Shown piece by piece: positions 2,914-61,604 of a DNA stretch of 64,000 bases. A program made the translations under genes and the position numbers. Source of the stretch: Rhynchobatus australiae (taxonomy: Eukaryota); contig JAUZTB010000027.1 in the NCBI GenBank assembly GCA_034780895.1, positions 15,456,569 through 15,520,568 on the forward strand, given 5' to 3'. A model generated the notes under the pieces. The model did not search any database, was not told the origin of the DNA, and saw only the letters and a list, made by a program, of their open reading frames with translations. Position 1 is the stretch's first letter. Each line of letters opens with the position of its first letter.

Positions 2914-3017
2914 CTAGAAGATTAGCAGAAAAATGAGTTGAACCCTTCAGTGCTCTGTACAGCTCAGCTCTTTCAGATATCTGCAGTTAAAAATTCTACT
3001 TCTATACGGCAAAGATA

Positions 3018-3178
3018 AAATCAGAATCAGGTTTATTATCACAGACATATGTCATGAAATTTGTTGTTTTGTGGCAGCAGTATAATGTAAGACATAAAAA
3101 TTACTATAAGTTACAAACTAAATAAATAGTGCAAAAGAGGAATAATGAGATAGTGTTCACAGACCGTTCAGAAATCTT
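3018..3178 (-). mobile_element. LINE 3' tail fragment (Rex-like) ending in AATAAA and short TTCTGA repeats
   Basis: ATCAGAATCAGGTTTATT terminus is typical of fish and shark LINE tails. Confidence 0.45.
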
Positions 3179-4881
3179 TGATTACTTTATTTTAATTTAA
3201 TTTTATTTTAACTTTGAGTCTTTATGTTACAATTCACTCTCAGGAATGAAAATCTTTTTTTTTGCCATTTGCCTCCAATACATTTGTCACAATCTTAACT
3301 TGGTAAGAAAGTGTTTTATCAATTTTGATGTAGAGTGCTAGTGATCTCATTTCCTGCCTCAAAAGATACGACTCTCCAGTTCATCCTGTTATCTCAGTTT
3401 AGCCTGTTGGGTGACACCAGGAAGTCGGAAGGAAAGGCACCACCATCCTTCCTAAATGTGGCAAGTAGAATGAGAGGACGTAAAAGAATGGGGTTTCCTC
3501 ATTCCAAATTGAAGAAGGTTATTTTGCTTTTGCTGTTGTTATGTAAGAATACAGGAAAGAGTTTCAGGCTGACCTCATGCCACTGAGTTGAATAGAATAA
3601 TACTTCCACTAGATATTGATGGATTCTGCTGTGATCAATTCAAATTAAGTTGTGCTTCATATACTGTTCAAAATGTGGTATTTGGTGCATTTTAAGTACT
3701 GTATACCCTAACTGTGAAGTACACAAGTTCCTCCTCCCGAAAGCCTGTGCTACATTCCAGTTGACAGAAAGCATCATATGTGCACCGTACAATGTCAAGT
3801 GTGCCAAGAGCTAACTAATGAATAAGGACTCAAAACCCATAGCTTTTCTGCTAATTTATGCTTGCCAACACAGTTCATTTGTTTAGGCTTCCCTGTGTAC
3901 ATTAAAATAGTTTTTATGCATCCTCTCAGTTAGTAGAGCGAACAAGAGGCTGGCCAAGGATGACTAAAGCTGCTATTTACAGGCACTCTAATCCATTTAC
4001 ATAATGCCAGCCATGTGACCATTTACAGTGAAATTATAAGAAGTTATTCTTAATACAGCTCACTGATCACAAAAGACAGAAGACAGGAGGAATAAGCTTT
4101 CAGGTTTGAAAATGTTTAATATTTAGTTTTCTACAGAATTTAAAGCCAAAGATTAATCCTGATCCCTTGGGCTAATATGTAATACTTCCTAAATAAGCTG
4201 GGAACACAGACCCTTCCTGGCCAAGACCCAAAAAAAGCCTGAGAATACAAAAATATATTCACCACAATGCCAATAAGGCTTGAATGCAAACTTACCTTAG
4301 TTAATCAGTCCACCATTGACTGAAAAGAAACCCTTCATTCTATTAGTCAAATCAGAATTCACTAAACCTCCCCCCAACCGCCCCGATCCCCTCCAAACCC
4401 ACTTGTACTAAACAATCACAAACTGGCAGAGATCAGAGATTTTGTAACTTTATCATTAAGACTCAGGTGACTTTACCTCACTGGAGTTTTATACCTCAAA
4501 AAGCAATCACTTGCAGGTTCTCCCCCCATTATTCCTCACAACCAAGGACAAGTGAAGGAAAAGCCTCCAAGATGCACAGATCTACTTTGATAAACAACTT
4601 CCACCCATTAACAACCTTTAAGGCAAAAATGATCCCAATAGGAAACCCACTGGTAACTGTAGAGTTGGGGAGAGGGACTAAAAACATGCCCAAAATGATA
4701 GCTTTGAGAAAGCTTTTGAAGGTAAGATGAGCAAGAACAAAGCAGAGGTGCATGAAGAGATTGCTTGTGATTGATCCAGAGCCAAGATAGATAGAAGGCC
4801 TAGAAGTGGACATGAGGAAATGAACTGTGGTAATACAATGGTGACTGCAATTAGAAAAGCATTCTTAATGCCACACTTTGG

Positions 4882-5162
4882 AGACACAAGAGATTCTGCA
4901 GATGTTGTAATCTGGAGCAACACACACAAAATGCTGGAGGAACTCAGCAGGTCTGGCAGCATCGACATAAACAGTCGACATTTCGGGTCGAGACCCTTCA
5001 TCAGGCCCCTTCATCTCGGCACCGGCCACTTCCAGGCTGTGGCTCCCACCACCTCCGGCTCCAACAGTCCTGATGAAAGGTCTCGACCTGAAACGTTGAC
5101 TGTTTATTTCCTTCCATAGATGCTGCCTGGCTTGCTGAGTTCCTCCAGCATTTTGTGTGCAT
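4882..5162. mobile_element. Non-autonomous Penelope-derived element with inverted arms and two hammerhead motifs; 13-bp TSD
   Basis: Arms about 4915-5005 and 5069-5165 are reverse complements. TGCCACACTTTGG is repeated at 4869-4881 and 5163-5175. Confidence 0.8.
5063..5104 (+). ncRNA. Minimal type-I hammerhead ribozyme motif
   Basis: AACAGTC-CTGATGA-A-AGGT(CTCG)ACCT-GAAAC-GTT-GACTGTT: 7-bp stem I, conserved core, stem II, palindromic AACGTT in place of stem III. Confidence 0.7.
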
Positions 5163-5214
5163 TGCCACACTTTGGGACATACAACTACATTAGAGATGCT
5201 TTATAAGTGCAAGA

Positions 5215-5560
5215 TTAGGCTGTCCAATGAATGCACTCAGGTCTTTTTCACCCCCAGAGTTGGGGTATCAAGAACTAGAGGAGGACATAGATTTAAGGTG
5301 AGAAGGGAAAGATTTAAGAGGAACTTGAGGGGCAACTTTTTTTTTACACAAAGGGTGGTAGCTCTGTGGAATCAGCTGCCAGAAAAAATGATTGACGCAG
5401 GTACAGACTTTTAAAAGACAGTTGGACAGGTTCATGGATTGGAAAGGTTTAGGAGGTTATGGGCCAAACGCTGGTAAATGGGACAAGGTTGGATGGGGCA
5501 TCTTGGTCGGCATGGACCAATTGGGCTGAAGGACCTGTTTCCGTGCTGTATGACTCCATG
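5215..5560 (+). mobile_element. CR1 (HER1-like) LINE 3' fragment
   Basis: SRTRGGHRFKVRRERFKRNLRGNFFFTQRVVALWNQLPE (CR1 ORF2 C-terminus) plus the GGGCTGAAGGACCTGTTTCCGTGCTGTATGACTC tail. Confidence 0.85.
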
Positions 5561-8500
5561 TCCTGTTGGTTGGAGAAAATTACAGAATTTAGAAAAGGGA
5601 GGAAATTTGCAGGGAAGGGAACCAGAAGACAAGGATGAGTCTGAAAACAAGCTCAGACATTAAGGATAGCATGTGAACAGAAGAACTTGGAATGAGTTGT
5701 GGCTTAATTAAGGTGGAACTTGCAATGCTGACAAGGAAAACATTAACACAGCAATGCCTGGAGGTGTGGATAAGAGACCCAGCAACTATGAGGGAGAGAT
5801 ATGGAGTGGAGACATGCAATGCTGGACCAGTGGAATGAAGCCATTTTGGTGATGGTCGGGAAATGGGATTTGAACTTGAGCTCAAATCAAACAGCACAAG
5901 CAGGATGTGTACACCACAGTGCAGCATTTGTGGAAGTGTTGAAGAGAAGACAATATGCAAAAATTCTGATGGAAGCAGAACAGCCTTGCCATTGTTATTA
6001 TTTATCAACAACTCGATGGTCCAGAGGGAATCTGGTAGTCCCCAGTGGCTGGGTGATGATTAAGAATTCCTGCATGGACCCATAAGATACATATGAAATC
6101 TGAACAATACATGGAGACGTTGTCACCCGAGGGCAACAGTGTCAGTGAAGGAAACTAAAGAGCCAATTTATATCATTGAAGAGCCAAGAATATTTGGACA
6201 CTTCTGATGAAGACACAAGTGTCTTCAAACACCATGTCTAAATTCAAGTATTAATATGCAAGTCTAATGTGTCCCAGTGTAAATATAAAGTCAGGCGTCC
6301 TGTTATCATTACCACTTTGCAGTTCAGAAATAGGAAGAATTTGTTTATTGCCGGGATCATAATTCAGCATAGGGAAGTTACTTTGGTGTCACAAATTTAC
6401 TTAAATATGAACAATACAGAATAGTTAAGTTTCCTAACTGTTAAATAATAAAGCAACCATAATCTTTGGTCAAGATGACATGGCTCTGAGTGTACTACAA
6501 TAAAAAGAACTGGTCGTATCCTTAAGAAATGTTATTACATTCCAGCTAGACAACATTAATGTCTCATTGTTCTTTTGCTATCTTGGACATTGGTGAAGAA
6601 GCTGTACTCAATTGCTGGCATTGCTCCACCCGTCAGCCATGATTTACTGCCACTGGGTATAGAAGAGTACTCTAGAGATGTGCAGGAATGCGTTTACTTT
6701 NNNNNNNNNNNNNNNNNNNNNNNNNNNNNNNNNNNNNNNNNNNNNNNNNNNNNNNNNNNNNNNNNNNNNNNNNNNNNNNNNNNNNNNNNNNNNNNNNNNN
6801 NNNNNNNNNNNNNNNNNNNNNNNNNNNNNNNNNNNNNNNNNNNAGGGACAAACTTATTTTGCATTTAATCTTAAATGGTATCGATCCTTAATCTGGAGTC
6901 ATTTAAATTATCAGTTTGAAATGACACACTAAATTTTTTTGCTATAATAGACCAAGGAGAGTGATCCACATGCGAATACTGTTACTTTATTTTGTTGTTT
7001 CAGGTTTGCTAACATAATTCAACAATGTTAATGTGCATTCTGTCATAGGGAGCAAAATAGTATTGAATGGATTAAAATGGAGACAATGTGAACGTGAGTA
7101 GGATTCAACATCAGACACAGTAACGTCATTATGTCCTTTTCTTAAAAAAAAGAACAGTGGGTTTGGATTTTTACCAGTTTGTATGGATTTATCTAGTTTG
7201 CAGGTAAATGTGTCCATGTGGACAACCTAACCATTCAAACTTCTTAACTATGTCTAACCAATGCACAATAATTAATAAAATTTGGAACTGCTTGGTTAAA
7301 CTGCAGAAAGTATGTCAGGAAAGTCATTGATCAAACAGAAACTGCTTGTATCAGACCACACTATTTGATTCTTGGTCTATTCTGATCACCATAGCACAAG
7401 CAACTCATTGATGCAGTGAAGACATAAGAGAAAAGAGCCAAGCACTGCTTCCTTTTGAGTCTGAATTATGATGGAAAATGGGAGATACTTTGTCTTTTTG
7501 GTCGAGAAAGGAGTGTCAATGTGATAACTATATAGAGGTGTATAAAAATAGTGAAGGGGGAAGTCACTGATAAAACTGGTAAGAAGTTCAGAGAAAAGGT
7601 CTTTACCCAAGTCCTGATAGAATGTTGAACTTGCTACAACAAGAGACAACATGCATGCATGCATTTGCCGGGCTCAGACAAAATAAATTAAGGACAAACA
7701 CCTCCTATTGGTGGAATAGTTAAGGACCAGAATATGGATGTTACACTGAATGGGAAAAGTACCAAGGGAATGCTAGTCAAAACCCAGAAACAAATCAGGA
7801 AAAATATGCTGTTGCAATTGAGAACTTTGGGCTCCCTCTTGGTTGAATTCAGACAGGACACATTACGTGATCTCATATCCAGCTCATCCCAAAATGCAGC
7901 AATGAGCTGATTTAGATTTCCTGGATGGAATCTTGTTAAGAGAGTGCTTCTAGGAAAAATAGTCACTAACTAAAATGCTAATATTTGTACTGATATGAAT
8001 GTGCAGGGAATGGAGGGATATGGATCATATGCAGGCAGAAGAGATTTAGTTCAATTTGGCATCGTGTTTGGTGCAGACATAGTAGGCTGAAAGGCCTTTT
8101 CCATGTTCTTTGTGCACTACATATAGCAGACAATCATGGAGACATCTATCCCTGTGTAATTACAAATATGTTGGAATCAAAACCTGTCCATGAACAGAAT
8201 TGCAATTCTGTTCTGAGGTAGTACTCCCTATTAAAAGAGCTACTTCTTTCTTCCCACGAGGTAGTTGAATTCACCCCTAACCAATGCTAAAACATCACAA
8301 GAAATTTAAGGGGAAACTAATGTTTAAAACACATGCTTTGAGCAGGGTAATTTCCTTGTTAGTGGAACATTATCATTCTAGCAAAATTTGTTGTTTTAAC
8401 ATGAAGTTCAGCGAATGGCAATAACAACTTGGCTCACCTCTTCCTTATAAATTTCTCCCACTCAAATAACATAACTGCATTTCTTTCCTTGCCAACATTT

Positions 8501-10289
8501 CCCTCTCCTTTACAGCAATGTTTATGTTGCCATAGTCTGTTCATATGAAACTTTTATTGCTTTCTCTCATTTCTAGCTACACGTTCACTTTTAGCCTAGT
8601 TATCACACAGCCCACCCTTCCACTCCTTTGACACACAGACCATCTGACATTGCTTAATGAATTTGCTTCTGACAAACCACAATTCATTGTGTGCCCTACA
8701 AATGGAAAATCATTCCTTTCATCTCTTTAATAATGTGGTCTGGTAGAATTAAGCAAGTCCCATAAAAGCTGTTCATTAAGGGGAACGCAATGGATTAATT
8801 CTGCGAACATCAGCAGGAGTATCTCCTTGGTTGAGTAACTATGCCATCCCAGTGGTCCTTAAAGCAAAACTGAACATGCTTGCTTCAGAATATATGTCAA
8901 TGCGTTAAGGATGGCACCATCAAATAACTACTTTATGAACACGTCTGATCATCTGGTGTAGCTAATACAAGTGAAGCATGGGCTAAGATAGATGGAGATT
9001 ATTATTAGACTAAAATAGATATTAGTCTGCATCTGAATTCTGGGATTTGACACTTAATAATGTCCTGAATTGAGGACATGAAAGCTACATGGTAGATGAA
9101 GAAAATCAGAAACATAACCAACTTTTTCTATTAATATTACACATGGGAATTGATAAAGATTTTGATAAAGAGATTTGAATAAAATTTCATTAAATGTAAT
9201 TATTAAATCAAGGCATGTTGGCATTACCACACATGTAAATACTCATTAAATTCTGAATCTGTCATGTCTATTTAAATTTGAAAGGCTTCACTGATAAACG
9301 TCTAATTTTCTATTGAACTTTTCTGGCTTTGTTCTTGCTACAGACAGAGATGCAATTGTTAAACTCAATTCCTATAATTACAGACAAACTGAGGGACATA
9401 TAACACAGACTTCACATTAAATGGAAAAAGGAACTTTACTTAAGGATTCAGATTAACTTGTTCAATAGTTCTTCTGCCATACTTCTGCAAATTGCCTTTT
9501 TATTCTAATTCACTGTTTCATTTTCAGTTTGTATTCAAATCCCCAGATCTCTTTTACTGATTTCTTTTTCATTTTACAAACAATTTAGGACATTCATCAA
9601 TTATTATACAAAATTCTACATCAGTTCAAGTAGAATTTGAGGCCTAGGGAAGGGAGTGCAATCAAATCTAATGCATCTGCCAGAGAGTATCTGTCTGCTG
9701 TGGATGCAGCCACCAATGAAGAAATACATCAATATCTTCAGGAATTTTCTTTGCTCTTACGCTCTATGTACTAGCAGTGAAATAAGAACACAAGAGGGGC
9801 ACAGAATAGAACACCATCTCCTGGAATGAACCAGTATTGAAACCACAAATGGCCTTCAAATACAAAAACAAAACTCAGAAAGTGATTAACCTCCNNNNNN
9901 NNNNNNNNNNNNNNNNNNNNNNNNNNNNNNNNNNNNNNNNNNNNNNNNNNNNNNNNNNNNNNNNNNNNNNNNNNNNNNNNNNNNNNNNNNNNNNNNNNNN
10001 NNNNNNNNNNNNNNNNNNNNNNNNNNNNNNNNNNNNNNNNNNNNNNNNNNNNNNNNNNNNNNACAGATTTTCTTTTCCAATAGGATATTACATTGGATTA
10101 GCATCAAAAATCAAGAAAGCAAACATAGGCCATCATTACCACAAAAGGGGAGGGAGGGGGTAGATTGTGACATCTAGTCTTCTTGCTGTGGCTGTATTGT
10201 ATAACTTGAGGTCGTTCCCAAAAATGCTGAGGCAAACATCTACATTTGCTAACAGGATCTCGATAATTAAAAAAATACAGTGAACTTAC

Positions 10290-16089: not shown

Positions 16090-16415
16090 ACACAGAAAAT
16101 GCTAGAAAAAAAAAATTAGCAGGTCAGGGAGCATTCAGGAAAGAGAAAAAATTAAAGTTCCAAATGAAGGGTCTTCAACCTGAAGTGATAACTGTTTCTG
16201 TTTCCACAGATGCTGCCTAGTTCTGCTGGCAGAATTCAGCAGGGCAAGCAGCATCTGTGGGCGGAAAGGAATTGTCCACACTATGGGTTGAAACCCTGCA
16301 TCACCTGACCTTGCTTCAGATTCCAACATCTGCAGTCTCCTGTGTCTGCCTGACCTGCTAAGTACTTCTAGCATTTTCTGATTTTATTTCAAATTTCCAG
16401 CATCTGCAGTTTTTT
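16090..16415. mobile_element. Cluster of nested or inverted Penelope-derived short repeats
   Basis: Same arm sequence (GATGCTGCCTGACCTGCTGAGT...CCAGCATTTTCTG) in both orientations. Confidence 0.65.
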
Positions 16416-18300: not shown

Positions 18301-21300
18301 TCAGAGAACTGTCTCTATAAAACCAACTGAGACTAATCATTTTTTGCAATTGTTATTCTTCCAGCATTTTCACAGATGTCTATAGCATGCTCCACCCCTT
18401 TTCCAGTCTGCAATGTTAACCCATTCATAGACTGTAGTTTAGTTAAGGCAAGGTTTTTCTCCCAATTATTTCAATCTTTGTTTATCTTATAAGCCAAATT
18501 TTCAAATGTCATAGTCTTTTATTCCCCTGTATTTACATGGTTGTACTAATTTGAGACCACCTGCATTCCTGAGTCAGAAATGAGCCTGAATAATTGACCT
18601 AGCTGTTCTGACCACACAGAACATGTGCCTCATCAAGCTATTAGACACCAGGCCTCTAAGGGAAACAGTGCAAGTAAATTACTAAATGGTTTCTAAATGC
18701 CATCACACATTACCTGAATTAAATAAAAGGCCATGACAGAAAATATGGTGTCCTTCTGGTGTCAGTAAGGTAACAAGGGTTATTAAATACTGACCAAGGG
18801 GTCTAGCTTGGAAAAATTAGCTAAGGGGCATTCATTTCTTAACTCAACTTGATATAGTGCCCCAAAATTCTTGGAGATTTTGATTGGTCTCTATGTGCAT
18901 GGAATGCAGTGAGGAAATGGAGGGCTATGTGGGAGGGAAGGGTTAGATAGATCTTAGAGCAGGATAAAATGTCAGNNNNNNNNNNNNNNNNNNNNNNNNN
19001 NNNNNNNNNNNNNNNNNNNNNNNNNNNNNNNNNNNNNNNNNNNNNNNNNNNNNNNNNNNNNNNNNNNNNNNNNNNGAGGGCTATGTGGGAGGGAAGGGTT
19101 AGATAGATCTTAGAGCAGGATAAAATGTCAGCACAACATCATGGGCCGAAGGACCTGTACTGTACTGTGCTGTAATGTTCCATGAAACACCAGGTTTCAT
19201 TTTAAATGTGATGAATATTCAAATTATGTTTACTCCTTCATAATAGTGTTATACAGTGAAGGTGAAAATACAATTAATCAATCAATAGTTTCTAAATGTG
19301 TACGTGTTTTAGAAATTCCTTGATTCTGAAACTCTTCTGTTTAGTTATTCAGTGAAACAGTGGTGCTGCTGCTTAAGATAGTAATGTCAGATATTGGAAA
19401 AATGTGGCCCCTTCAGTAAAATAGTGCTTGAAACAGGACCTGTACATTTGTTTTCATGACCGCAAGATCAAAGACTTTTTTGTTTTCGGTTCAGTAATGA
19501 ATCTTTAAAGTTTACTTGACACCTGCATGTGTCTGGAAATGCTGTGGTAAAGCAAGCTCTGAAGTTAGATTACTGACATAGGGATTTTTAAAAAATAAGG
19601 TTTTTTGTATAGTATCAGCCCCACTTGGAAATTCATTGGGCAACAACCTTTGCTAAGTTGTGATGTTGAGCATAAAGAGATCATGCTTTATTAAGTGTTA
19701 AGTTTCAGACTTAATTTGGATGGGTGCATTCCCAAAGGAGATCAGAGGAAAATAAAAATTATCAACAAAGACCGTGCATGCCATGCAATATAAAACATTC
19801 AAGAGCTCTTCAGAAGAGGCACGATAGATGTTGTTCTTTATTACAGGTGATCATTGTTCCCAGGATGCGATGATGATAATGGCAGAGGAGCAGCAAGAAT
19901 ACTTCTTTTGCCGGAAAAGATGTTGGTGCGAGAAGGAGATCCAGCAGTGGTTACAGATGTGGCTCATAACCATTGAACTGATAACACAAAAAGCCATGAG
20001 AAGAAATTTTGCAGAGTGAATGGAAAGGTTGATGTTGTGTAAAATGATCCCCTACTATCAGCAGTAAACACACCAGACTGTGAAATGGGATGCTTGTATG
20101 ATATAAAGTGGCCAAAAGAATGGAATTAAACTTATTAGAGCCCCTAAACTTTGCTCCATTTTTACTGCTGTAATTAAGCAAGATAGCCAATGTACTCAAA
20201 AGCAGGAGCAATATAATTAGAGACTAACTTAGGTAACTAAATTTGCNNNNNNNNNNNNNNNNNNCATGAAGAAAAATGGGGGACTGAAAATAGTTAAGAA
20301 TAGAAAGTGGAACCATGCAGTTATTTTAAATGACAAGAGAATAATTAACAGGAATTTGGAAAGCAAGGTCTTCATTAATATCAGGTAAGGAGAGCTGAAG
20401 AACATTTGGAATAAGTGCAATTAAATTAGTAACATTAACTGCAACCTTAATGTAAAAAAAACATGTCAAAAGTCACAAAACACAGCTTTTATGGAAGAAT
20501 TCACCTAAATCAGATCTGAAAATTAGTTTAAATGTGAGCATGGATTCCAAATTTTATAACAATAAAACATATCAGATCCAAGATTAATATAGAACAGTGT
20601 CTCAGAGCAGTCTTTTATTACTAGAAAGCCTGTAGTCTGATCAGGGAGACTCTGGGATTGACTCAGAGCAGTGGCCATCACCTGCCGAAGGAGACTGATA
20701 AACCTATAAATTCCTTCACCTCCAGCGTTCTAGATCAATACATGAAGCATGTAACAATATTGGTAGGAAGGCAACGGAGACTCTGGAAACCCTCAGGGAA
20801 GACGACACAGTAACAATTCTGATGGGATGATGCGCATTGCCATTTTGTGGCTTCGCTCTGGATAGAGCGCCATCATCCCCCAGCTCTTCTGTACAACTTA
20901 AAATGCTGCACTTTCACAGCAACGGAAGGATGACACCATTTGAATGGGTCACTCAGTGGTCCGTAAGCCACTGATTAAAGTTTCCTAAACTAAGGTTGAA
21001 TATAGATGCCTGCACAGCCAACAACATAATTCAGGTATGTCTGTTGCCAGGGCAGGAGCTAGTGAATGCTCTCACAATCATTCAAATCTATCCTGGAGTG
21101 AAACAGAACTTTGGAGAAACATTAGTTAATAGTGGCATAGAGTGATTCATGAATGGTTGGAAGGAGGTGGGTGGATGGGGGGTGTATGTGAGGGTGGTGT
21201 TGTACAAAGGGGATTGGCACCTTTAGCTCAGAATCAGGTCTACAGAGAGATAATAATCTTAACCAGCTTGCTTGTCTAGTTAAGAAATCCCTGGATGGAT

Positions 21301-28064: not shown

Positions 28065-28292
28065 CGGTGTGTAGCAGAGGGTGGTGGGGAGGTGGAATGA
28101 ATTGGCAGAGAAAGTGATAGAGGGGGATACAATTACAATGATTAAAGGACATTTAGACAGGTCCATGGATAGAAAAGGTTTAGAGGGATATGGGCCAAAC
28201 GCAGGCAAATGGGGCTGACTCAGGTAGACCACTTGGTCAGTATGGACGAGTTGGGCTTGAAGGGCCTGTTTCTCTGCTGTATAACTCTGATT
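28065..28292 (+). mobile_element. CR1 LINE 3' tail
   Basis: Homologous to 5350-5560. Confidence 0.75.
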
Positions 28293-31420: not shown

Positions 31421-31645
31421 CATGTACTCCATGTTGGAGGATGAGGGATAGACCTGTCCCCGCAGGTGATTGTGAAGTTGCAAAATCTCATCTTTGTCGA
31501 TCTGGGGGATGGCTCGCTTGTTCCTCGAAAGGACATATTCCAACAAACTTTCGACATGCGAGGCGTTGCGCAAAATCCCGCAACTCGATTCCTGAGCCAG
31601 GCCAATTATAATGGCGACAAAGGTCCAGGCGCAGACAGGGCTCAT
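31421..31645 (-). CDS. CRISPLD2: CRISPLD2 first coding exon: MSPVCAWTFVAIIIGLAQESSCG...SRNKRAIPQIDKDEILQLHNHLRGQVYPSSSNMEYM
   Basis: ATG in GCCATGA context, hydrophobic signal peptide, RNKR basic site, LHNxLRGQV..SNMEYM, GTGAG donor. The exon extends 5' to an acceptor at 31712-31711. Confidence 0.95.
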
Positions 31646-34318: not shown

Positions 34319-35004
34319 TATCGTTAAATTCATGACTTCTTCACTCTGTAATGACGTCTGTCTCTTCAGCTATCTCATCTTTGGATGCTGTTCGTAACTG
34401 ATTTAAACAGGTAACCTCAAGCTTTTCTGATCGTTAGTTCATCGGAGTTTAACGTCCTCTCCCTGAGATCAATTTTGGGGTACAGGAACAAATATGCCAT
34501 AAAATAAAAGTGGAAAATAAAACAATGCTCATATACACCAAATCTGAAATAAGACAGAAATTGCTGGAAACACTCAGAAGACCAGGCAGCACTGGTGGAA
34601 AAAGAATCAGCGTTTAATATTACAGGTTGATGGCCTTTCAACACAACTGCCTTAACTTGGAGACAAAACAAGTGTTACCTTACAAATCAATAGGGAAAAT
34701 CCCCAATAGGATGGAAATGAGGTGTGTTAGCACATCAGAGGCTGGTGGTTCTGAGTAATAGAAGGACGAAATGAAGAAAACCTGGAATTATGAAAGAAGA
34801 GAAGAAAAAATCTGAATGCTAGAAATATGAGATCAAACACAGGAATTCAGATTTGGAGTAGATCATTTGCCCCCCTTGATCCTTCTCCGTCATTCACGGC
34901 TGATCTGATTGTAACCTCAAATCTGCATTCCNNNNNNNNNNNNNNNNNNNNNNNNNNNNNNNNCCTGGAAAACCAGATTTTATCTGAAATGGTTGAATTC
35001 AATA

Positions 35005-35200
35005 ATAAATAAAAATAGTAAATGTTAGAAACATTTGGCAGATCATGTAGCATTGTTGGAAAGAGAAACATTAGTGTTTCATCTGGACCTGAAATATTAA
35101 TTCTGTTTCTGTTTTTTCAGATGCTTCCTGACCTGCTGAATGTTTACAGCACCTTCTGTTTTTAGTTTGTATTTCCAGTATCTGGGTTTTTTCTGATTTT
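35005..35200. mobile_element. Penelope-derived inverted-arm repeat (degenerate)
   Basis: Family arm sequence in both orientations. Confidence 0.55.
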
Positions 35201-36089
35201 CATTTACCGTTGAATTCAATGTTGTGCAATCAAGGTTTAACTCTGCTGGATTTTGTGATGCAAGAAAATTAGATTTTATTTATAATTATTCCATGGGGAA
35301 AGAACAAGAGAGGGAGGGGTGTTTTAATTGTTTAGCTGTTTCCAAGATCCAGCTGAAGCACAATGTGTGGGGTGTCCTCCTGTGCTGTAATACCATGAAT
35401 ATGATACCACAATTCTCTGTCCAACTATCACTGATTGACTGACAGGTCTTTCCAAGTACAGGTGCACCCATTGATACTTTCATTGTGGGGCCAGGCAGTG
35501 AGATCGATACTTTGATCAGATTTGTTTCACCTGTCATTAGGTTGCAATAATAAAATTATCAAGAGCTATCATATTCACAAAAATGACTCAATAAATAGGA
35601 CCAAATCCCATTTCATATAGGTCACAATCTATTGTTGTGGTTACTTTATTATTAATTAAGATACATTTTTAATAGTTCCAATTTGGTGCAATTCACTTAT
35701 TTTTCTGATCTAAATTTATAAACTAAAGTTAGTAAACAATTGGGATCAGCCTATGAGACATTTGAAATAGCAAAATTTATCTGTTAGAAACAAGGATATT
35801 TCTGAATAATTAGCTTTTTATATTAATCTTTGAAAATGCACATTTTTATAAATTTTTAAGAATGTATTTGCATTGTGCTGTTGGGGAGGGGTTTTGCGAT
35901 TGTACACCCAGCAACAATGAAGGAACAGGAACATATTTCCAAATCACAGTTGTGTGCGACCTGCTGGTGGGTGTGGGGTTCCCATCCACCTGCTGTCCTT
36001 GCCCTTCACGGTGGTATTGGGGATGAGTTTGGGAGCACTGTCATGAGTAGATCAGGGGATGCAGAAGAGGTACTTCCTGATAGAAGTAT

Positions 36090-41149: not shown

Positions 41150-41885
41150 GGTGAGTGAGCTTCCAGTCATATTTTACTTGAGGTATCCATCCCATTCTGA
41201 CCTCTGTCTTTGGCCTCCGACATTGTTCCAACAAAGCTCAATTTAAGCTTAACGTACAGCACCTCAATTCCTGACTAGTTACATTTCAGTCTTCAGGACT
41301 CGATATTGAATTTAAAGATTTCAGATAATCAGTCATTTCAGTCTGGTATCTCACATCTGCACCACGTGTTTTTGTTCCCTCACTCCTCTTCTGGTATTTC
41401 AGATTTAAATCATCTCTCTTCTAGTTACACCTCCCCCTCACAAAACTTCCATTCTTTACTAGTCTTTCCCACATACTTTCACGTGCTACCACCACCACTT
41501 GCATCCTTTAATCTCTCCTGGTCTCCGTCATTTCTCTCAAGATACAAGAGACTATGATTGCAGGAATCTGGAGCAAAACAAAAACAAACTGCTTGAGGAA
41601 CTCAACAGGTCAGGCAGTGTCTGTGAAGGGAAATACAAGGTCGACATTTCAGGTCGGGGAACTTCATCTGGACTGGTCACTTACCTTTTGTTTTCTCTGT
41701 CTCACTCCCTTTCGCTGCAGCTTAAAACTTGTTTCACTCCTAACTGTTCCCAGTTCTGATGAAAGGTCAAGAATCTGAAAGATTTCTTATTTCTTTCTCG
41801 AGAGATGCTGCCTGATCTGCCGAGTATTTCCACCATTTTGTATTCCTATTTCACATTTTTAGCATCTGCAGTAGTTTGCTTTTGA
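41150..41885 (+). mobile_element. Penelope-like element 3' remnant: degenerate GIY-YIG endonuclease C-terminus plus pseudo-LTR, with an inverted younger copy nested at about 41540-41675
   Basis: Translates LPV...PSHSDLSVFGLRHCSNKAQFKLNVQHLNS*LVTFQSSGLDIEFKDFR* (stop 41326-41328), resembling PLE ORF ends. Followed by a CTGATGA...GAAA repeat at 41756. Confidence 0.7.
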
Positions 41886-44687: not shown

Positions 44688-45353
44688 NNNNNNNNNNNNN
44701 NNNNNNNNNNNNNNNNNNNNNNNNNNNNNNNNNNNNNNNNNNNNNNNNNNNNNNNNNNNNNNNNNNNNNNNNNNNNNNNNNNNNNNNNNNNNNNNNNNNN
44801 NNNNNNNNNNNNNNNNNNNNNNNNNNNNNNNNNNNNNNNNNNNNNNNNNNNNNNNNNNNNNNNNNNNNNNNNNNNNNNNNNNNNNNNNNNNNNNNNNNNN
44901 NNNNNNNNNNNNNNNNNNNNNNNNNNNNNNNNNNNNNNNNNNNNNNNNNNNNNNNNNNNNNNNNNNNNNNNNNNNNNNNNNNNNNNNNNNNNNNNNNNNN
45001 NNNNNNNNNNNNNNNNNNNNNNNNNNNNNNNNNNNNNNNNNNNNNNNNNNNNNNNNNNNNNNNNNNNNNNNNNNNNNNNNNNNNNNNNNNNNNNNNNNNN
45101 NNNNNNNNNNNNNNNNNNNNNNNNNNNNNNNNNNNNNNNNNNNNNNNNNNNNNNNNNNNNNNNNNNNNNNNNNNNNNNNNNNNNNNNNNNNNNNNNNNNN
45201 NNNNNNNNNNNNNNNNNNNNNNNNNNNNNNNNNNNNNNNNNNNNNNNNNNNNNNNNNNNNNNNCCCAACCTGGATCCACTGATCACCCACCAGCTCCTGC
45301 TCCACCCCTTCACCCAACTTGTTTTAAAATATATACTGGCTCCCCCCTCTTTC

Positions 45354-45391
45354 CAGTCCTGATGAAGGGTCTCAACCTGAAATGTCGACTG
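45354..45391 (+). ncRNA. Minimal type-I hammerhead ribozyme motif in a Penelope-derived repeat (about 45265-45487)
   Basis: CAGTC-CTGATGA-A-GGGT(CTCA)ACCT-GAAAT-GTC-GACTG. Confidence 0.65.
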
Positions 45392-45534
45392 TCCATCCCT
45401 CTCCATAGATATTGCCTGACCCGCTGAGGTCCTCCAGCACTTTTGTATGTTGTTCCTGATTTCCAGCATTTGCAGTCTCTTGTGTCCCCACCTAGAATAC
45501 AGTGGTTTTGATTCACTTGTATAAAATTGTAGTA

Positions 45535-47277: not shown

Positions 47278-47530
47278 AACAAAACCGCAGATGCTGGAAA
47301 TCTGAAATAAAAACAGAAAATGTTGAAAACATTCAGGTCAGGCAGCATCTATGAAAAGAGAAACAGCTTGTGCTTCAGGCTGAAGACCCTTTGTCGGAAC
47401 TGCAAAAGAGGAAGAAAAAGGTTAATTTTAAGTTGCAGAGAAGCTAGGGAAGATGGGTAAAATAAAACATCTGTTAAACCTCTCTAAAGGTGTTGCCTGA
47501 AATGCTGAGTGCTTCCGGCATTTTGTTTTT
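47278..47530. mobile_element. Penelope-derived inverted-arm repeat (degenerate)
   Basis: GCAGATGCTGGAAATCTGAAATAAAAACAGAAAATG... and an inverted partner GCCTGAAATGCTGAGTGCTTCCGGCATTTTG. Confidence 0.6.
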
Positions 47531-49513: not shown

Positions 49514-49709
49514 TCACAGCAGATCAACGCGGCGGTAGTACAGGAGGTAGGCTGTACGTTCAGCAGAGGGCTTCACAACCTGGTACTGATTTATCACTTT
49601 CNNNNNNNNNNGATCTGGTCATCAATGCGCAGCCAGCCATTAAGACCAATGTGGAAGACATCGGTAGTGTAATGTCCACCGGTTGCACTGTTTCCGTGGT
49701 GATAGACAA
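49514..49709 (-). CDS. USP10: USP10 last coding exon: [33 protein letters not shown][gap][28 protein letters not shown]
   Basis: USP His box and the USP10 C-terminus. Acceptor at 49711-49710, TGA at 49516-49514. Interrupted by a 10-N gap at 49602-49611. Confidence 0.96.
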
Positions 49710-52700
49710 CTGAAAAAGAAAGGAAAACGTGGTAGAATACTAAAACCAAATACAACAACCTTCCTTTTAAATAACATTCAGCAACTAATAGCAGTAAATA
49801 TTCCTTTGCTGATACTTTCCACCTCTCACAATTAGTAAACAATTCCCCTTTATGCAAGTGGGTGGGAAACATGAACAAAAGCCCATTCCCACTGAAATGA
49901 TAGAGCATAATTAATTTCAGTTGTAGCTCAGATAAGTATTTATACATGAGAATCCCAGATGTTTGGACAGTAATAGAAATACAGAATATTTCAACAAATG
50001 GAAGAAAACCTCTGCCATCAGCTCACAATATAGAAGTTCCATAGGAAATTAAATTCTGTTCAGCACTGAAGAATATCTTTACATCTTAACATGTCAATAA
50101 TTGGCACATAGAAACCATGAAGAATAATTTTCCAACTAGCTGATTAAATGGAAGTTGTGCAAATCATAACAACTATGCTCACATAGTATATGGTGTTGGT
50201 TTTGGGTTTGATTAACATTTGTTAGTATATACATTATTATATTGTCAGCTCCCCGAGCCCAAAACATCTTTATTCAAGCCAGTTAGTTGTATGCTGGAAT
50301 TGGTGTAGATCATATTAATTATGGGATGTATTCATTACATTACTTACAAATGCTTAGAAAGTCATTTGCAATCACTGTATATCAGTTGTATGGTTTTGAA
50401 CAAAACCCACACCCATATAACCAGGATTTTTGTTTGTCAGAACATGCCAGTTCTGATGTGCAGCCTTTCACCTTAACTCAGTTTTCTCTCTCCACGAACA
50501 CTGCCCGATTTGCAGGGTTTTCTGCCCCTCACAACTCCAGCAGGTTCTTTTCATTATTCTCTCTAATTGCCCTTAACCATTTACCAACTAAACAACACCT
50601 AGGCAATCTTGATCTCCACCCTACGAGACATTCCCTTTGTACTTTCCACAACTTAGGACATATCGGTTTTCACATTTCTCCCATTCTTGCCAGGGTATCA
50701 TTGGCCTGAAATGTTAAAACACATTTCTCTCTCCACAGAAGATGAAAGACTTCTAAGTATTGCCAGTGCTTTGTTTTTATCCCTAACCCCTCTCTTGTCC
50801 CCATGGATAACAACATGCTGGCACTTATAACTATAGTCTAGAAAACAAAAATGCCAAGAATGAAGACATATGTCGCTGAAATTTCTAAATGTTAAAAGGA
50901 GCCTGGTATAATACTTGGTTCAGATCTCTGTTTGAAAAATTCTTACATCTTTTATAACTTTAAAGCATATACTAACAATTGAACAACTACACTGTCAAAT
51001 TTCCTTAAAGTACACATTTCCCTCCTGGTTACCAGACATTATAATTGGCATTACATAGAAGCATCTGAACTGAAAATGTTGCAAATCAATGGCTCAACCA
51101 ACACCTGAACAAATTTCTTTTGGGGACAGGAATACACCAGTTATTTTAAAAAGTGAAAGCTATAATTTCAAATGTTAATAAAAGTGAAAAACTTAAGATC
51201 TTATTCATTCAATCACTTCTGGTTAAATACTATTTTGGTCTACACAGTTGATTGTACTCAAAGAATCGTTTGTACAACATTTTATCCTGTTGTCCCAAAG
51301 CAGTTCATTGCAATACTATTTGTAAAGTGAAGACATTGGTAATTGTTTTGGCCAATTCATGCATGGGAAGATTCCAAAAACAATAAATGAAATGATCACA
51401 TTGTGCTTTTTAATTTTTTTAAAGCAATTACTTCATAACAAAAAAAGCCAGGTGACCTAACAAGAACTAGTTAGATTATTTCAACGTTTGTACATTTGCT
51501 TAGATTTGACCTACTGGTGGTTAAGATTTACCCTGGCTGTTGAGCATCGCAGCAGTTACACTACCAGTCTGCCTGTACATTTACTTTTTAAATTGCTGTA
51601 AATGAAGAATTTAATGGGCACCAGTATGGTGGTATTACCCATGTCCAAACCACCTTGCAGACAGTTTGCATGTTGGATCACCGTATTTAAAGTCAGACAT
51701 GCAAACATTTTAAAAATTATGTACGAACTTTCCCACAAAGTTTAACCTTTTTGCTTAAATGGAAGACACCTCAAAATAATTTGAAAATGCTCCAAATATA
51801 GCCAACCACATTTCTAACACTATTCTATTAGCAGTCTTCAAAAAAAAGACAAACCACCAAAGGGATAGAAGAAACTAATAATCATTCAGCAGATACACAA
51901 GAAGTGGTAATTTAATGAAATGACTTGAGTGAGATCAAACTCCAATTAGTTGCAGTGGCAAATATAACATGGGTATAGTTTTCACAGGTTTTTACTTTCA
52001 TGGATTTAAACAGTTACACAGCAGCTGAAATTAATGCAAAGACCAAATAGACCACTGACTCACCCCAGAAGCCAACACTGATTTACAAATTCATGACAAT
52101 TCCATAGCAACCAGTGGCTATGATGACGCACATGGGAGATAGAGTTCTGTACTAAAGCGAAGTACTGTTTTTTTCACTGTGGTTTGGAGAGTTTACAGGA
52201 CACTTTATCCCTTCTTATAAAACTGTAATAACATTCCATGGACACCAAAAAAGACATTTAAAGGTAAAGATCACCCTTTTGTGAAATAAAAGGTCATCTG
52301 TAGCTCATCAGATTTGCATTCGGGTATTTTTACTTCCAAATAAATTCAGCCAACTGTACATTTTAACAATAAAAAGTTGTTTGCTGATTCCACTGAGCCA
52401 CTGCATGAAAATACTAAAGTCACCATTCACCGTGAACTCTTTCTCCTGATATCCAAATAAAGCTTGAGCTAAACATTAAGATAAAGTATCCTTTGTTCAC
52501 TAAATAATTCTAAACATTTAACACTGCAAGGGATAACCCATTTCACATTACGACCTCACAGTTCCAGCATTTTTCCTTTTCCTACTGTCTCTCTGTATAC
52601 AACTCCTCCAGACAGATTAGCTGCCAACAAGTTTTAATCAACCTGTCATCCACATTGTTATTCTTCTGATCACTTTTGCTCTCCCCGCCCTTCCTCCTTA

Positions 52701-54492: not shown

Positions 54493-55441
54493 TTTTTTTT
54501 AAACCTTTACCAACTTTTATTTAGCCACAGATCCTCAACAGTTGTGCCACATGGTTTACAACAACTTGGTCTTTTTTCTTTAATTTAAAACCAGGTACAA
54601 AGATTAAAAAGTTTCACATCAGATTTACCTTTTCACTTAATTCACAAACAAGTTAACACCCAATTCAAAAATGACATTACCAAAACAGACTCATGATTAA
54701 AAAAAACTATCAAGAGAAAGGCATTGAAGAATACTGAAAGTGGAAATGTAGGCACACTGATTTCCTGAGGTTTGGTGATTTAGCTGCTCTCACCCAGTGT
54801 ATGCTTGTCAAACAGGTACTCGGCCATGCCATTCTGGGGCACCCCCATGCAAGTCAAATTGGTGATCATGTCTCCAAGCTTCTTTATGGCTTTGACCTGC
54901 TCATGCAAGTAGTAGGTTTCTAAGAAGTCGCACATAGGAGGGTTATTCTTGTCTGCAGCAAGTGGAGCTCCAGGAAAGACTGGTTGACGGTCTCTTCCAG
55001 GTGAAGGGCACACCGTAGAGCCTCGAGGCCATTGCTCCACTCGTCTCAGTCAGGTTTCGAAATGTCCTGGAGAATAACACGTCCTCTATGCTGGTTATGG
55101 AATTCTATCAGTTTTTCCACATGCTCCCACTCCTCATGGGACTGATCCCAGAAAAACTTGGCTAAGTTCTTCAACGCCACATCATCCCGATCGAAGCAAG
55201 CAGATATGGACAGGTAGACATAGGAGGCATAAAGCTCCATGTTGATCTGCCAGTTGACACTGGCTTCGCATTCCTGGTGGTAATTCTGGTGCACCTGGGA
55301 AGTCATCCTGCACTGGTTCCGACACAAAAGGTTGCTTAAATCAAAATAAAAGTAGTTTTTTTCCAAAAAAAAGGGAGGCTTTTGCAAGATTTGGGCTCTA
55401 TTCTGTTCAAACACTGTTGAAGCAAGAATACAACCCAGATT
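54493..55441 (-). pseudogene. Ferritin heavy chain (FTH1-like) processed pseudogene in the last intron of USP10
   Basis: Intronless CDS 55306-54780 ([16 protein letters not shown]...[16 protein letters not shown]). In-frame TGA at 55048-55046, frameshift near 54960, 5' UTR with IRE, AATAAA at 54521-54516, A8 tail at 54500-54493. Confidence 0.95.
55399..55430 (-). promoter_or_regulatory. Iron-responsive element (ferritin-type IRE hairpin)
   Basis: TATTCT-TGC-TTCAA-CAGTGT-TTGAA-C-AGAATA: CAGUGN loop, 5-bp upper stem, UGC/C internal loop, 6-bp lower stem. Confidence 0.92.
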
Positions 55442-56457
55442 CTCAAAAGGCAAAGTTAAATTAAACCATAATGGAAAATGACGAGGCAGGGCCTTTTAGT
55501 TTTCTTAAATTCAGACTGGGTTATTATAATGAGACCTTTGAGTAGCTAAACTTTTATTTCAGCATCAGCACAACTACCAAAATGAAGAACTCCAAATTGA
55601 TTAAAGATTCCAAGACAGGAACTGAAAAAAGTAATCAGCAATAGGACAAGATATGTCACGTTATGCAAAAATGCTTAATACTAGTAACAAATCTGGCAAC
55701 CCAATTCACATTTTATTTTCCACAGGCTGTTCTGTGATGATGACTAGGAAAATCTCCAAATTTCACATTAACATTTGAAAATAATGCCTTTTCAACACAC
55801 TTAAAAATCACTGGAATTTAAAAATATTCCTCAAATCCCATTATGACAGCGTTTGAAAGCAAACAACTACTTTTTTTGGTTCTTTGAATTCCAAAAGGAC
55901 GTTTTAGCATTTCAATCCTCGTTTCAATTTGTCATCTCCTGCCCTCTCAGAGTTTTTTCACCATGTGCAAAGCACAAGTCAAGAGTGTGATAGAATATAC
56001 TTGTGTGGATCAGTGGAGCCCCCAAAATACTTGAGAAGGTCCACGCTATCCAGGACATGTGGTCCTTTAAATAAGCTGTAAACGAAAATCAAACTGCAGA
56101 GGTTTGAAATAGAAAATAAAATCAGAATATTAGGAACACTCAATACAAAAGGCAGCATCTTTTGAAGGAGAAACAGAATGTGTGTTTCAGGGCAAAGGCT
56201 CTATACCTGTCAGAATTGAGAAAGAGAAAACAAGTTTGTTTAAAGTTGCAGAGAGTAGAGGAGGGAACAGATAAGACACAGGATCTCTCAGATAGGGCAA
56301 AACCCCAGGGTTGCAAGTAGTAATATATGAAGCCACCTGGGATTTTTTTTAAACAGCTCTGCATTCACAACTTTGACATGTTCCTTTATCTAAGAACTCT
56401 CTCACTAACCTATGAGATAGCTTCATCAACAACTTATCACTACTGCAATCCTAGGGT

Positions 56458-56619
56458 GACACATGAGACTCTGCTGATGCTGGAATCTGGAGAGCAACAC
56501 ACACAAAGTGCTGGAGCAACACACACAAAGTGCTGGAGCAACTCAACAGATCACGCAGCACCTATGGAGGGAAATAAACAGTAGACGTTTCGGGTTGAGA
56601 CCCATCATCAGGTGTGTGT
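56458..56619 (-). mobile_element. Penelope-derived short element with hammerhead core (56611-56584) and 14-bp TSD, nested in an older copy (about 56090-56790)
   Basis: TGCAATCCTAGGGT at 56444-56457 and 56620-56633. Minus strand reads CTGATGA-T-GGGT(CTCA)ACCC-GAAAC-GTC. Contains an internal tandem duplication of about 22 bp. Confidence 0.8.
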
Positions 56620-58914
56620 TGCAATCCTAGGGTCTCGCCTTTGACCTATCCATCCCTCCTGCACCTTAAAACTAGCAAGTTCTCCGTTTCCCAATTCTGA
56701 TGAAGAATTGACCTGAAATAGTAACACTATTTCTCTTTCTACAAATGTTTCCTGATCTGCTAGCTCATTCCAGCATTTTCTGTTTTTCTCTTATGTAGCA
56801 CGTCACCCTCAATTTAAACAACAATGCTCTGTCACAGGTAGAGTGCCTGTAATGAGCACAGGTCCTGTAATCAACTAAATGCACTGCAGTTACTTGTCAA
56901 GGCTACTCCCAACAACACATCCAGAACCCAAAACTTCTTTTAAAAATACAAGGCCACCACAAACATGGGAAAACCATTACCTACAGGTTACCCTCTGGTT
57001 ACACACTATCCTACTTGTGAATACCATTCCCTCATTGTCACTGGTTTTAAATCCTAGAACTTCTTTAATAAATAGCAGGCTGGGAGAAGCTTCACCACTT
57101 AGAATGCTGTGGTTCAAGGCAGCATTCACAACCATCTTCACAAGAGCAATTTAATATAGGCTTTAAAAGATGGCTTTGTCAATAATCCCTGCAACACCTT
57201 GAGGAAAAATCCCTGTTCAAATCTCAACAGTGCCTCAGCATTTATTGAGCTCACTGCAACCAAATTTTCATCCAGATTCAGCAGATTTAATATCAACACA
57301 AGATCCTTAANNNNNNNNNNNNNNNNNNNNNNNNNNNNNNNNNNNNNNNNNNNNNNNNNNNNNNNNNNNNNNNNNNNNNNNNNNNNNNNNNNNNNNNNNN
57401 NNNNNNNNNNNNNNNNNNNNNNNNNNNNNNNNNNNNNNNNNNNNNNNNNNNNNNNNNNNNNNNNNNNNNNNNNNNNNNNNNNNNNNNNNNNNNNNNNNNN
57501 NNNNNNNNNNNNNNNNNNNNNNNNNNNNNNNNNNNNNNNNNNNNNNNNNNNNNNNAACCTCAACTCCACATTCCTGCCCTCACAAAGTAATATTTCCCCA
57601 TAAGATAACTTGGAATGGATGGGTTATCAGTCTAGTGAACTTTCTTTGAACCATTTCATAATATATTTACGCCCTTCCTTAAGAGGCCAATACTGTACAC
57701 AATACTCCAAATGTGATCTCCCTAACTAATTTTATTTTGGGAATATATAGACATTGAAGTCCAAGCCGCAGTTCTTCATCACATATCCTTGAAGGCGACA
57801 GAGGTAATTGATTAAGGAATTTAGAGATACGAGTTCATCAAGGATTGGGGGGAGGGAGAGTTGGAAAAGGCAATCAATTTTCTGGTTTAGAATTGTCTGG
57901 TTAAGGTGTACAAGACATTATTTCAACCTTTATAAGCTGCCTTGTCCTTTGAAGAATGCCTAAAATTTCTTTTGCTGGTAACCTTGTATAACCAATTATA
58001 ACTCTAAATACTGATTAACTGAAGACACTTTAGATCAAATGAAGCAGCAGCACATGATATGTCAGCCCTGCAATTGCCAAGATACAATTTTTAGACTGCT
58101 TCCCTTGCACAATTGGCAAATTATTGAAATATAAACATATGAATTCTCCACATAAATATATTCAACTTAACAGGAACAAACAAGACAATATGTGCAACTA
58201 TCATGATGTAAAGCATCTGCCACGGAACAACCATAACCAAGAAACATTATGAATTTGGTACATGATGAAATTCTTAGAAAAGATTCCTAAACCAGGACTG
58301 CTGGTACAAGAACAGAATATCAAAATTCAGCTTCTTCAATAATGGAGACACACAGGAATGTGCAAATGATAGACCAAGTAGTTAACATTAAGTACCAAGT
58401 AGTCATTACCGCTGGAATGTACACAAATTGCTTAACAGCTGTTCTTTTAAATGATAGGTTTTCTATGTTTTAAAATTAACAGGATGTTGTGCTCCAGATG
58501 ATGTGCTTGGAATCTTCTCAACAGGGCTTTGAAAATATGGTTCCCATCACAAAAGAAAACTATAAACTAAAATTTTCAAATTGTGTTACCACATAAAGTA
58601 GTCCAATCCCATTTGTTTATAAACCTCAGAAAAGAGGTCATTCAGCTTATTGGTATATTGCATTCTATCATCTCTCAGAATTACAAATTAACATACCTGA
58701 TGAATTTTTCCTTTATAAAACTTAAAACCCCTTCTGTTTTTGATCTAAGCAGTAATATTGCCCAGTGCATGCAATTTGACACCGAGTCAACAAGCAGCAC
58801 CAGGAACGTAGCACTAATTGAACACTAACGATTGTTGTTTTCTTTTCAAATATTTCACAATTATCATTAGAAACACAAAAGTCAAGGAATTACCGATTTT
58901 AATAAATTACATAC

Positions 58915-60558: not shown

Positions 60559-61408
60559 CGAGATGCAAGTCTTTCTAGTTCTATCCAATGGATCATTAGA
60601 AGTTATCATCATTCATACAGTAAAATAGATTTTCCATCTACACAAAATAATCAAACTCCACTTTACTGCTCCCAACACACCTCTGAATAATTTTATCAAT
60701 TATTCTCAACTAACTGCCAGATGGCAATATTGTTTGTGTTAAATAATTTGAGCTGACAATTTAGATTATCTTTTACTCAATTTTCTGATACAAAAACAGG
60801 TTAGTCAAATTCTTGTATTCATTGTCGTTTTCCTACACGTTGCTTTCCTTGCCTCCCAAGGGGATCCCATCCACCTTGTTTAAGCAGGCGTCAAAGAAAG
60901 TGTAGGAGGTCAGAGTTCACATTTCTAAGAATCAGCAACTTTTAAGAGAGAATCAGAACGTAACAAGTGACTGGGACACTGAAAGGAATTGACCCTCTTT
61001 TACGATGAAGATTGACTGCATTCTCTTTTCTGGTTATGTTTATTTTCCTTGATTACAAAAAAAATTCAAATAACTGTAAGTTTACAATGGATTGCACTGT
61101 CAGACCAGTGTCACAGTAGAAACCAAGCACTTCGTGAAAAGTAGTTCAGACTGTAGTTACCTCAGGCTACTATCATGAAACATTGGTTCAGTATTAAATT
61201 GACAGAACATTAAACCTGCCTATTCCCTCTTGTATAAAACTGCACTGCACTGGGGGAACAAAACAAAAATGGTAGATATGTGGGGACCCTTCTGTATGTG
61301 TTAGAATGGCTATGTTAACTGCAGAGTTCAAAGGGAGGATGGGGAAACTATCAGCATTCAGTGCAGCAATCAACTCTCCATGTTTATTTATGTTAACACT
61401 ACACTTAC

Positions 61409-61553: not shown

Positions 61554-61604
61554 CTGAAACATCAAATGGAAATCAAGTTACACCAGTTTCATAAGCAAAT
61601 CAGG

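Follow-up and report, generated by a model that had tools for sequence, protein, structure and literature searches.

The 64,000-nucleotide stretch analyzed here (the window) comes from Rhynchobatus australiae (contig JAUZTB010000027.1 of assembly GCA_034780895.1, positions 15,456,569 to 15,520,568 of the forward strand). At positions 4882 to 5162 it carries a 281-bp insert with two hammerhead ribozyme motifs, located inside an intron of CRISPLD2, a gene on the minus strand, as established by mapping three matched proteins back onto the window. The peptide of the exon at 31421-31600 (minus strand) gave six matches to CRISPLD2 of sharks and rays, five of them named, with 70 to 83% identity. The insert is best read as one dead-on-arrival retrotransposition product of a Penelope-like element (PLE), with two pseudo-long terminal repeat (pseudo-LTR) ends placed back to back, an arrangement that is already known and common. 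The locus is organized as follows.

2914 to 10277, minus strand: host intron of CRISPLD2, approximate extent, between the exon matches at 10478-10278 and 2913-2782.
4869 to 4881, plus strand: left target-site duplication (TSD), 13 bp, exact repeat.
4882 to 4919, minus strand: distal extension of 38 nt, present on the left arm only (Penelope-type tail), from the arm alignment.
4920 to 5005, minus strand: inverted pseudo-LTR arm, sense on the minus strand, 5′-truncated one base upstream of the hammerhead core and with an 8-bp internal deletion.
4972 to 5004, minus strand: defective minimal hammerhead, the sole motif that is sense in the CRISPLD2 pre-mRNA.
4993 to 5015, plus strand: inversion junction, where the 9 nt of 4993-5001 recur in direct orientation at 5007-5015.
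5006 to 5062, plus strand: C-rich 57-bp middle, from the profile search of the window.
5063 to 5104, plus strand: complete minimal type-I hammerhead, antisense to CRISPLD2.
5105 to 5162, plus strand: remainder of the tail-less pseudo-LTR arm; beyond its end the template goes on with TGC, the three bases that open the TSD.
5163 to 5175, plus strand: right TSD, 13 bp, exact repeat.

The boundaries of the insert are sharp. The sequence TGCCACACTTTGG stands at 4869-4881 and again at 5163-5175, with 13/13 positions identical, which bears out the perfect 13-bp TSD and the 281-bp length given by the original prediction, a note made from the sequence alone. Exact direct repeats of 13 bp spaced by 100 to 600 bp occur five times in the window, against a mean of 0.95 in 20 Markov simulations, and the chance that one falls exactly at the arm boundaries is about 3e-8 per boundary pair, or 3.6e-6 with a slack of ±5 bp. 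Between the TSDs, the predicted arms of about 90 bp are indeed inverted, with 76/86 aligned bases identical between 4920-5005 and 5069-5162 and an 8-bp deletion in the left arm, but they are unequal, the left one carrying 38 additional nt at its distal end (4882-4919). Judged by eye, CpG decay is plausible for 5 of the 10 mismatches; among the differences, a helix II pair is G-C in one arm and A-U in the other. The hairpin has stability z scores of −15.1 and −12.7 on the two strands, and 0/200 shuffled sequences were equally stable. The tail at 4882-4919 terminates in a GTGTC/GTATC motif common to four other young copies and contains a small stem of 5 bp whose loop is AC-rich. As a control for the 9-nt duplication at the inversion junction, a 9-mer common to adjacent 20-mers was found in 87 of 19291 random places.

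The C-rich middle has no full second copy within the window, its best match being a weak one of 17/19 bases (E 0.03) to the upstream part of another copy, at 45286-45304. The original prediction had treated the 281 bp as the unit of the family; this is not supported, since the middle is not repeated in full in the window and the inner junctions vary from locus to locus. The idea that the middle represents a spliced first exon was unsupported, as the weakly matching stretch has no GT donor there.

Both hammerhead motifs carry the CUGANGA...GAAA-N-N-U-H core, in which A9 is followed by an extra base. In the plus motif, helix I comprises 7 bp (5063-5069/5098-5104), and the core CUGAUGA (5070-5076) is followed by an extra bulged A (5077), a 4-bp helix II with an A-U closing pair (5078-5081/5086-5089), GAAA (5090-5093) and CGUU (5094-5097). 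The cut proposed earlier, after 5097, agrees with this anatomy. The motif fits the minimal type-I hammerhead consensus in the supplement of Cervera and De la Pena (PMC4209133), with A-U in place of the conserved G10.1-C11.1; position 17 is U. The 7-bp helix I that had been announced is present but peculiar to this copy, as the other intact copy (45359) has 5 bp. The minus motif has its core at 5004-4998, a 4-bp helix II (4996-4993/4988-4985) with G10.1-C11.1, as also found in the minus-strand copy at 56611, and GAAA at 4984-4981. It has kept core and helix II and lost the 5′ strand of helix I, as foreseen, so that helix I is reduced to 1 bp; position 15.2 is U. Of the palindrome put forward as stem III, the plus motif retains ACGU (self-duplex, −3.5 kcal/mol), whereas in the minus motif it has decayed to AUGU (+1.2 kcal/mol). 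A hammerhead descriptor that required at least 4 bp in helix II and at least 3 bp in helix I identified two sites in the window (5070 and 45359, both on the plus strand) against 0.017 expected per simulated window, and with the 15.2-16.2 pair added it gave 0 matches in 60 simulations.

The arms belong to an abundant repeat family. An iterated profile located 26 arms in the window, and a longer profile gave 27 matches, 16 on the plus and 11 on the minus strand, which together cover 3197 bp (5.1% of non-N bases), with a density of about one arm per 2.4 kb. Two subfamilies were distinguished by eye, a younger, focal-like one and an older, T-rich one. The 5′ ends are scattered across profile positions 2 to 160. 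In contrast, the 3′ ends are bimodal, about 30 nt apart, with 9/27 at positions 167-173, 11/27 at 193-202 and 7 elsewhere. All five young tail-bearing arms end at the common motif to within 1 nt, and four of six young arms stop upstream of the core within about 7 nt of it, two of these sharing the identical base. Many arms are solo, and the inner junctions differ at every palindromic locus. Four copies are used below.

56444 to 56633, minus strand: sister insertion with a perfect 14-bp TSD (56444-56457 and 56620-56633).
34992 to 35220, unstranded: older-subfamily palindrome with a perfect 12-bp TSD, one arm with a tail and one without.
16216 to 16358, unstranded: young palindromic copy within an older arm (locus B), with an imperfect 13- to 16-bp duplication seen by eye and a profile overlap at 128-143.
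45286 to 45487, plus strand: solo young copy with an upstream pyrimidine tract, a 5-bp helix I and a tail, the reference for an uninverted arm.

In the sister insertion, the inverted tail-bearing arm stops at the same inner base beside the core as in the focal insert, and the tail-less arm is only 7 nt long. Thus, perfect TSDs of 13, 14 and 12 bp accompany the layout of one arm with and one without a tail at three loci, and 0/266 random window pairs scored so high. At the focal locus and at 56444, the template continues with TGC past the end of the tail-less arm and both TSDs begin with TGC, for which the chance from composition is 0.011 per locus. Locus B ends earlier, with an overlap of 4 to 5 nt by eye. 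A 10-bp repeat at the locus 47253/47556 was rejected as a TSD, as it lies off the arm ends and 1.1% of random pairs score equally.

We consider the insert to be, with a probability of about 0.78, a 5′-truncated inverted pseudo-LTR insertion of a PLE, primed from both target strands, because the tail is on one arm only, the 3′ ends are bimodal, end points recur, and the layout is found with TSDs at three loci. PLE parentage would rest on architecture, of which four hallmarks are present: inverted or direct pseudo-LTRs with variable 5′ truncation, a tail, a short variable TSD without poly(A), and a hammerhead in the pseudo-LTR. The proposal of a Penelope-type minimal type-I hammerhead in a retro-inserted element is thus strengthened by the one-armed tail, the inverted pseudo-LTRs and the TSDs of 12 to 14 bp.

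The tail of PLEs is described as an optional extension of 30 to 40 nt on one end of inverted pseudo-LTRs (PMC8557442) or as 34 to 37 bp long (PMC2377424), and for rotifer examples an inverted pseudo-LTR, a 31-bp tail and TSDs of 8 to 10 bp are given (PMC3846280). The insert resembles endonuclease-positive PLEs (Penelope of Drosophila virilis and Pen2a_Av) in that an inverted 5′-truncated copy abuts a direct one, with a one-ended tail, a variable TSD, heavy 5′ truncation and insertion beside older copies; in contrast to them, the focal arms have no open reading frame (ORF) between them, and the TSDs are 12 to 14 bp rather than the 8 to 10 bp of the rotifer examples. Cervera and De la Pena (2014) reported that metazoan minimal hammerheads are mostly single motifs of truncated PLEs, with opposite-strand pairs 100 to 700 bp apart, and noted that solo motifs number in the thousands in fish, coelacanth and frog (PMC4209133). 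Our motifs share with them CUGANGA, the extra base after A9, GAAA-C-G-U-H, the ACGU palindrome, a short helix I, the presence of helix II, the absence of helix III and the opposite-strand pairing at 100 to 700 bp, and differ by a helix II of only 4 bp and by A-U at 10.1-11.1 in the plus copy. Poseidon of Anolis carolinensis (PAc) provides the biochemical counterpart: Frangieh et al. (2024) found that this PLE protein cuts and extends both strands and initiates in vitro at two internal positions, one on either side of the tail (PMC11167929). The focal family agrees with PAc in two putative tail-bracketing starts of the reverse transcriptase (RT), the proposed extension of both strands, a hammerhead lying some 100 nt upstream of these starts, and copy ends that do not coincide with the cut site. 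PAc primes at AT-rich sites without homology, whereas the targets here are not AT-rich and a 3-nt overlap is found at the proximal start in two of the three loci with perfect TSDs.

Twin priming of L1 also leaves inverted and truncated segments inside a single TSD. The focal insert differs from such L1 inversions in that its segments overlap by about 90 nt and no poly(A) is present; this overlap implies that two copies of the template end would be needed.

The end points suggest the following course of events. The RT/GIY-YIG protein of a PLE would make a 13-nt staggered cut. One 3′ end would then prime cDNA synthesis at the distal start, which is the end of the tail, and copying would halt 124 nt on, just one base beyond the hammerhead core. 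The other 3′ end would prime at the proximal start, 35 to 38 nt further in, probably aided by 3 nt of pairing (TGC), with about 157 nt copied through the second hammerhead. The two template ends may have been provided by a tandem RNA or by two RNAs. End-joining repair would finally unite the cDNAs, leaving the 9-nt duplication, and fill-in would yield the TSD.

More tentatively, the junctions may record rules of integration in vivo, namely, a fixed distal start combined with a proximal start set by 3 to 5 nt of target pairing, and cDNA that often ends at the boundary between helix I and the core; we regard this generalization as doubtful. The pairing-guided start is drawn from the loci with the 13- and 14-bp TSDs and, by eye, the locus at 16229. 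If the stop at the helix I/core boundary is genuine, a short hammerhead-headed RNA might begin there, an intron might end there, or the protein-bound ribozyme might block the RT. The intron option is raised because a pyrimidine tract and AG precede helix I, as for the D. virilis intron, which ends at the hammerhead in the same place (PMC4209133). Neither of these two rules was found in the accessible text of the PLE papers compared.

Several family copies show further features around these sites. In most of the copies that reach further upstream (45340-45360, 41740-41756, 47395-47410 and others), a pyrimidine tract ending in AG stands before helix I. It resembles a splice acceptor, an ambiguous likeness, since helix I includes the AG as well. 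The sister copy has a 22-bp tandem duplication (56492-56542) that spans the proximal start region and may reflect RT slippage or re-priming. Young copies at 16229-16345, 41540-41677 and 56458-56619 lie within or just upstream of older family copies, which would fit a homing of PLEs to their own repeats. The palindrome at 34992 mimics a pre-miRNA, giving a weak Rfam match to MIR2118 at 35004-35171 (E 0.1).

A number of results weigh against the PLE reading. No coding trace of a parent was detected in the window: 0/291 stop-free frames of at least 55 residues matched a GIY-YIG family or RT in Pfam at E ≤ 0.01. The arm peptide compared with longer proteins gave 0/7 candidates at E ≤ 1, and the middle-plus-arm peptide gave five matches, all to tandem-repeat proteins with inflated scores, which were discarded as spurious. 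Rfam reported no hammerhead family in the whole window (E ≤ 5) or at 4860-5200 (E ≤ 10); such a miss would be expected for a motif without helix III. Local-alignment ends are imprecise in old copies, and one tail-bearing copy was scored as ending at 173. In a set of eight locus searches, automated TSD detection returned nothing at loci B, H, I (searched twice) and J, only a weak candidate at C, and at K a repeat away from the arm ends. The 34992 locus shows no clear microhomology, and priming by the PAc protein required no homology (PMC11167929). The remaining points concern the ribozyme. Over 11 core positions, the consensus base is kept in 115/129 cells against 564/710 in the downstream arm (Fisher p 0.010, with one of 14 copies left out as misaligned), but against the best-kept downstream block (389/478) the p value is only 0.047, and the test is biased, as copies were chosen and aligned partly on the core, which has no CpG. 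Covariation over 14 copies is not above that of shuffles (68/500 as high), with 61.7% of cells paired and helix II column 25/32 misaligned.

Other searches for a parent or for relatives were mostly empty. A motif regular expression run over the six frames of the window found no PLE RT/GIY-YIG. Pfam recovered only host domains (LCCL, UCH and ferritin) and one sub-threshold DUF from the 291 frames, and a looser rescan of five frames gave a weak RVT_1 at 59507-59912 (E 0.05 to 0.07), distant from any arm. No related DNA was found in GTDB genomes (0 matches with two patterns), plasmids or phages. A supposed relationship with Chompy, MER6 or UCON repeats could not be confirmed; in the accessible text of a Repbase review, only UCON13 is listed under Penelope and MER6 under Mariner (PMC5753468). 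A full-text motif search of papers returned unrelated primer matches only, in eight papers. No report of a minimal hammerhead in cartilaginous fish was found in the open-licence literature, and in the accessible supplementary text of PMC4209133, file 1 excepted, there is no shark, Callorhinchus or Leucoraja entry. The hammerhead-arm family may well be present already in Repbase or Dfam.

At the level of the family, the case for a hammerhead is fair. At the innermost pair of helix I, five of the 14 aligned copies have U-A and four have C-G, which amounts to one subfamily-level swap. At the level of the locus, the case for a working ribozyme is poor. Helices I and II are predicted with pair probabilities of 0.93 and 0.96 in the plus motif alone and of 0.87 and 0.90 when the middle and the right arm are added. 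In the whole insert, including the left arm, both fall to 0.0, as the duplex of the arms masks both hammerheads. At the focal locus the hammerhead is most likely silent: the CRISPLD2 pre-mRNA carries just the motif without helix I, the complete one being antisense to that gene, and in a transcript of the whole insert the duplex of about 90 bp would sequester either motif. Lying on opposite strands, the two could not dimerize in cis. A conserved minimal PLE ribozyme of this type would be expected to work on the parent RNA, and there solely when dimeric or assisted by the PLE protein. As a locus, the insert amounts to ordinary repeat debris, probably devoid of ribozyme activity. Family-wide, copy starts within 4 nt of the cut site number 0/27, and copy ends likewise 0/27. 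That no copy ends at the cut site agrees with the uncleaved RNA that serves as substrate of the PAc protein (PMC11167929) and disagrees with the cycle of retrozymes built as same-strand tandems.

The main rival explanation, which we consider rather unlikely, is a short non-autonomous PLE derivative, in which an RNA of about 130 to 200 nt (hammerhead, arm and tail) or the palindrome itself would be transcribed and mobilized in trans by the PLE protein in the manner of a short interspersed nuclear element (SINE); apart from the retrozyme component, this corresponds to the original prediction. It would account for the shortness of all 27 matches, none of which reaches coding sequence, and for the young arms that stop just upstream of the core, as if the RNA began there; moreover, pseudo-LTRs are sufficient in cis for mobilization in trans (PMC3846280). 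However, 7/27 matches reach the upstream edge of the profile, the inner junctions are different at each palindrome, the middle does not recur within the window, and heavy 5′ truncation is normal for PLEs (PMC8557442, PMC8969392). A tRNA head is also missing: ARAGORN, which can overlook decayed heads, found 0 tRNA genes in the window, and there is no simple-repeat tail.

It is quite improbable that the arms represent two independent insertions, the second of which landed inverted beside the first. PLEs do insert into or beside older copies (PMC6765202), as seen at 16229, 41540 and 56458, and the two arms have diverged at 10 of 86 bases, the helix II swap among them. Nevertheless, a single perfect TSD surrounds both arms with no second one inside, the same two end points recur at 56444-56633, and half of the arm differences resemble CpG decay.

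Even less credible is a non-LTR retrozyme, whose cleaved monomer would circularize and re-insert. The insert shares with metazoan retrozymes its non-coding nature, a length of about 280 bp, within their size range, a type-I hammerhead and a long TSD (PMC7229834). In contrast to the known elements, which are same-strand tandems of mostly canonical hammerheads according to the same source, its motifs are minimal and on opposite strands, and its ends are not set by cleavage. No tandem array and no same-strand repeats of 150 to 450 bp delimited by hammerheads were found in the window. The label "retrozyme-like" of the original prediction is therefore not retained, given the opposite-strand motifs, their mutual masking in whole-insert RNA and the lack of ends at the cut site.

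TSDs of DDE transposon superfamilies have a fixed length. A miniature inverted-repeat transposable element (MITE) with long terminal inverted repeats and an incidental hammerhead likeness, the least probable reading, is already largely refuted: the insert is small, non-coding, palindromic and TSD-flanked, but its arms are unequal and not both flush with the TSD, TSD lengths are 13, 14 and 12, many arms are solo, and descriptor matches are far above chance. That the insert is neither a DNA MITE nor a tRNA SINE, as the original prediction implied, is supported.

The PLE reading would extend PLE minimal hammerheads to cartilaginous fish, for which the open-licence literature searched gave no report. 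The arm family makes up a large repeat fraction that can easily be mistaken for MITE, SINE or pre-miRNA sequence. From its clean junctions, the way in which inverted pseudo-LTRs and tails arise can be tested on a genome scale, an origin called still undefined by Craig (2021; PMC8557442). Should the two integration rules be correct, the genomes of sharks and rays contain a PLE family of very large size (about 5% of the window) that is ORF-less and headed by hammerheads, and its copies map integration steps at base resolution. In the CRISPLD2 pre-mRNA, the duplex of about 90 bp could be a candidate substrate of ADAR or Dicer.

The surroundings of the insert provided some minor observations. The flanks contain a 15-bp imperfect inverted repeat (4856-4870/5188-5202), and the DNA-hairpin fold of the empty site is bettered by only 2.1% of 468 random segments; this is possibly a structured target, or chance. 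A near match to the B box of RNA polymerase III promoters, by its general consensus, lies at 4989-4997 on the plus strand, antisense to the minus hammerhead, and may be a candidate element. Immediately to the right of the insert, 5271-5560 is a different repeat, presumably the 3′ end of a CR1-type long interspersed nuclear element, with relatives at 28075-28287 and 60271-60543. A 56-bp exact repeat (18920-18975 and 19076-19131) flanks a gap of 100 N and is probably a scaffolding artefact. Further along the window, Pfam identified UCH-domain exons at 49612-50022 and 61197-61577, which we take to belong to USP10. An intronless ferritin copy at 54780-55433 (minus strand), recognized by Pfam Ferritin and by an iron-responsive element (Rfam IRE_I, 55398-55433, 40.1 bits), has its frame interrupted by a premature stop near 55046 and is likely a processed pseudogene within an intron of the UCH-domain gene.

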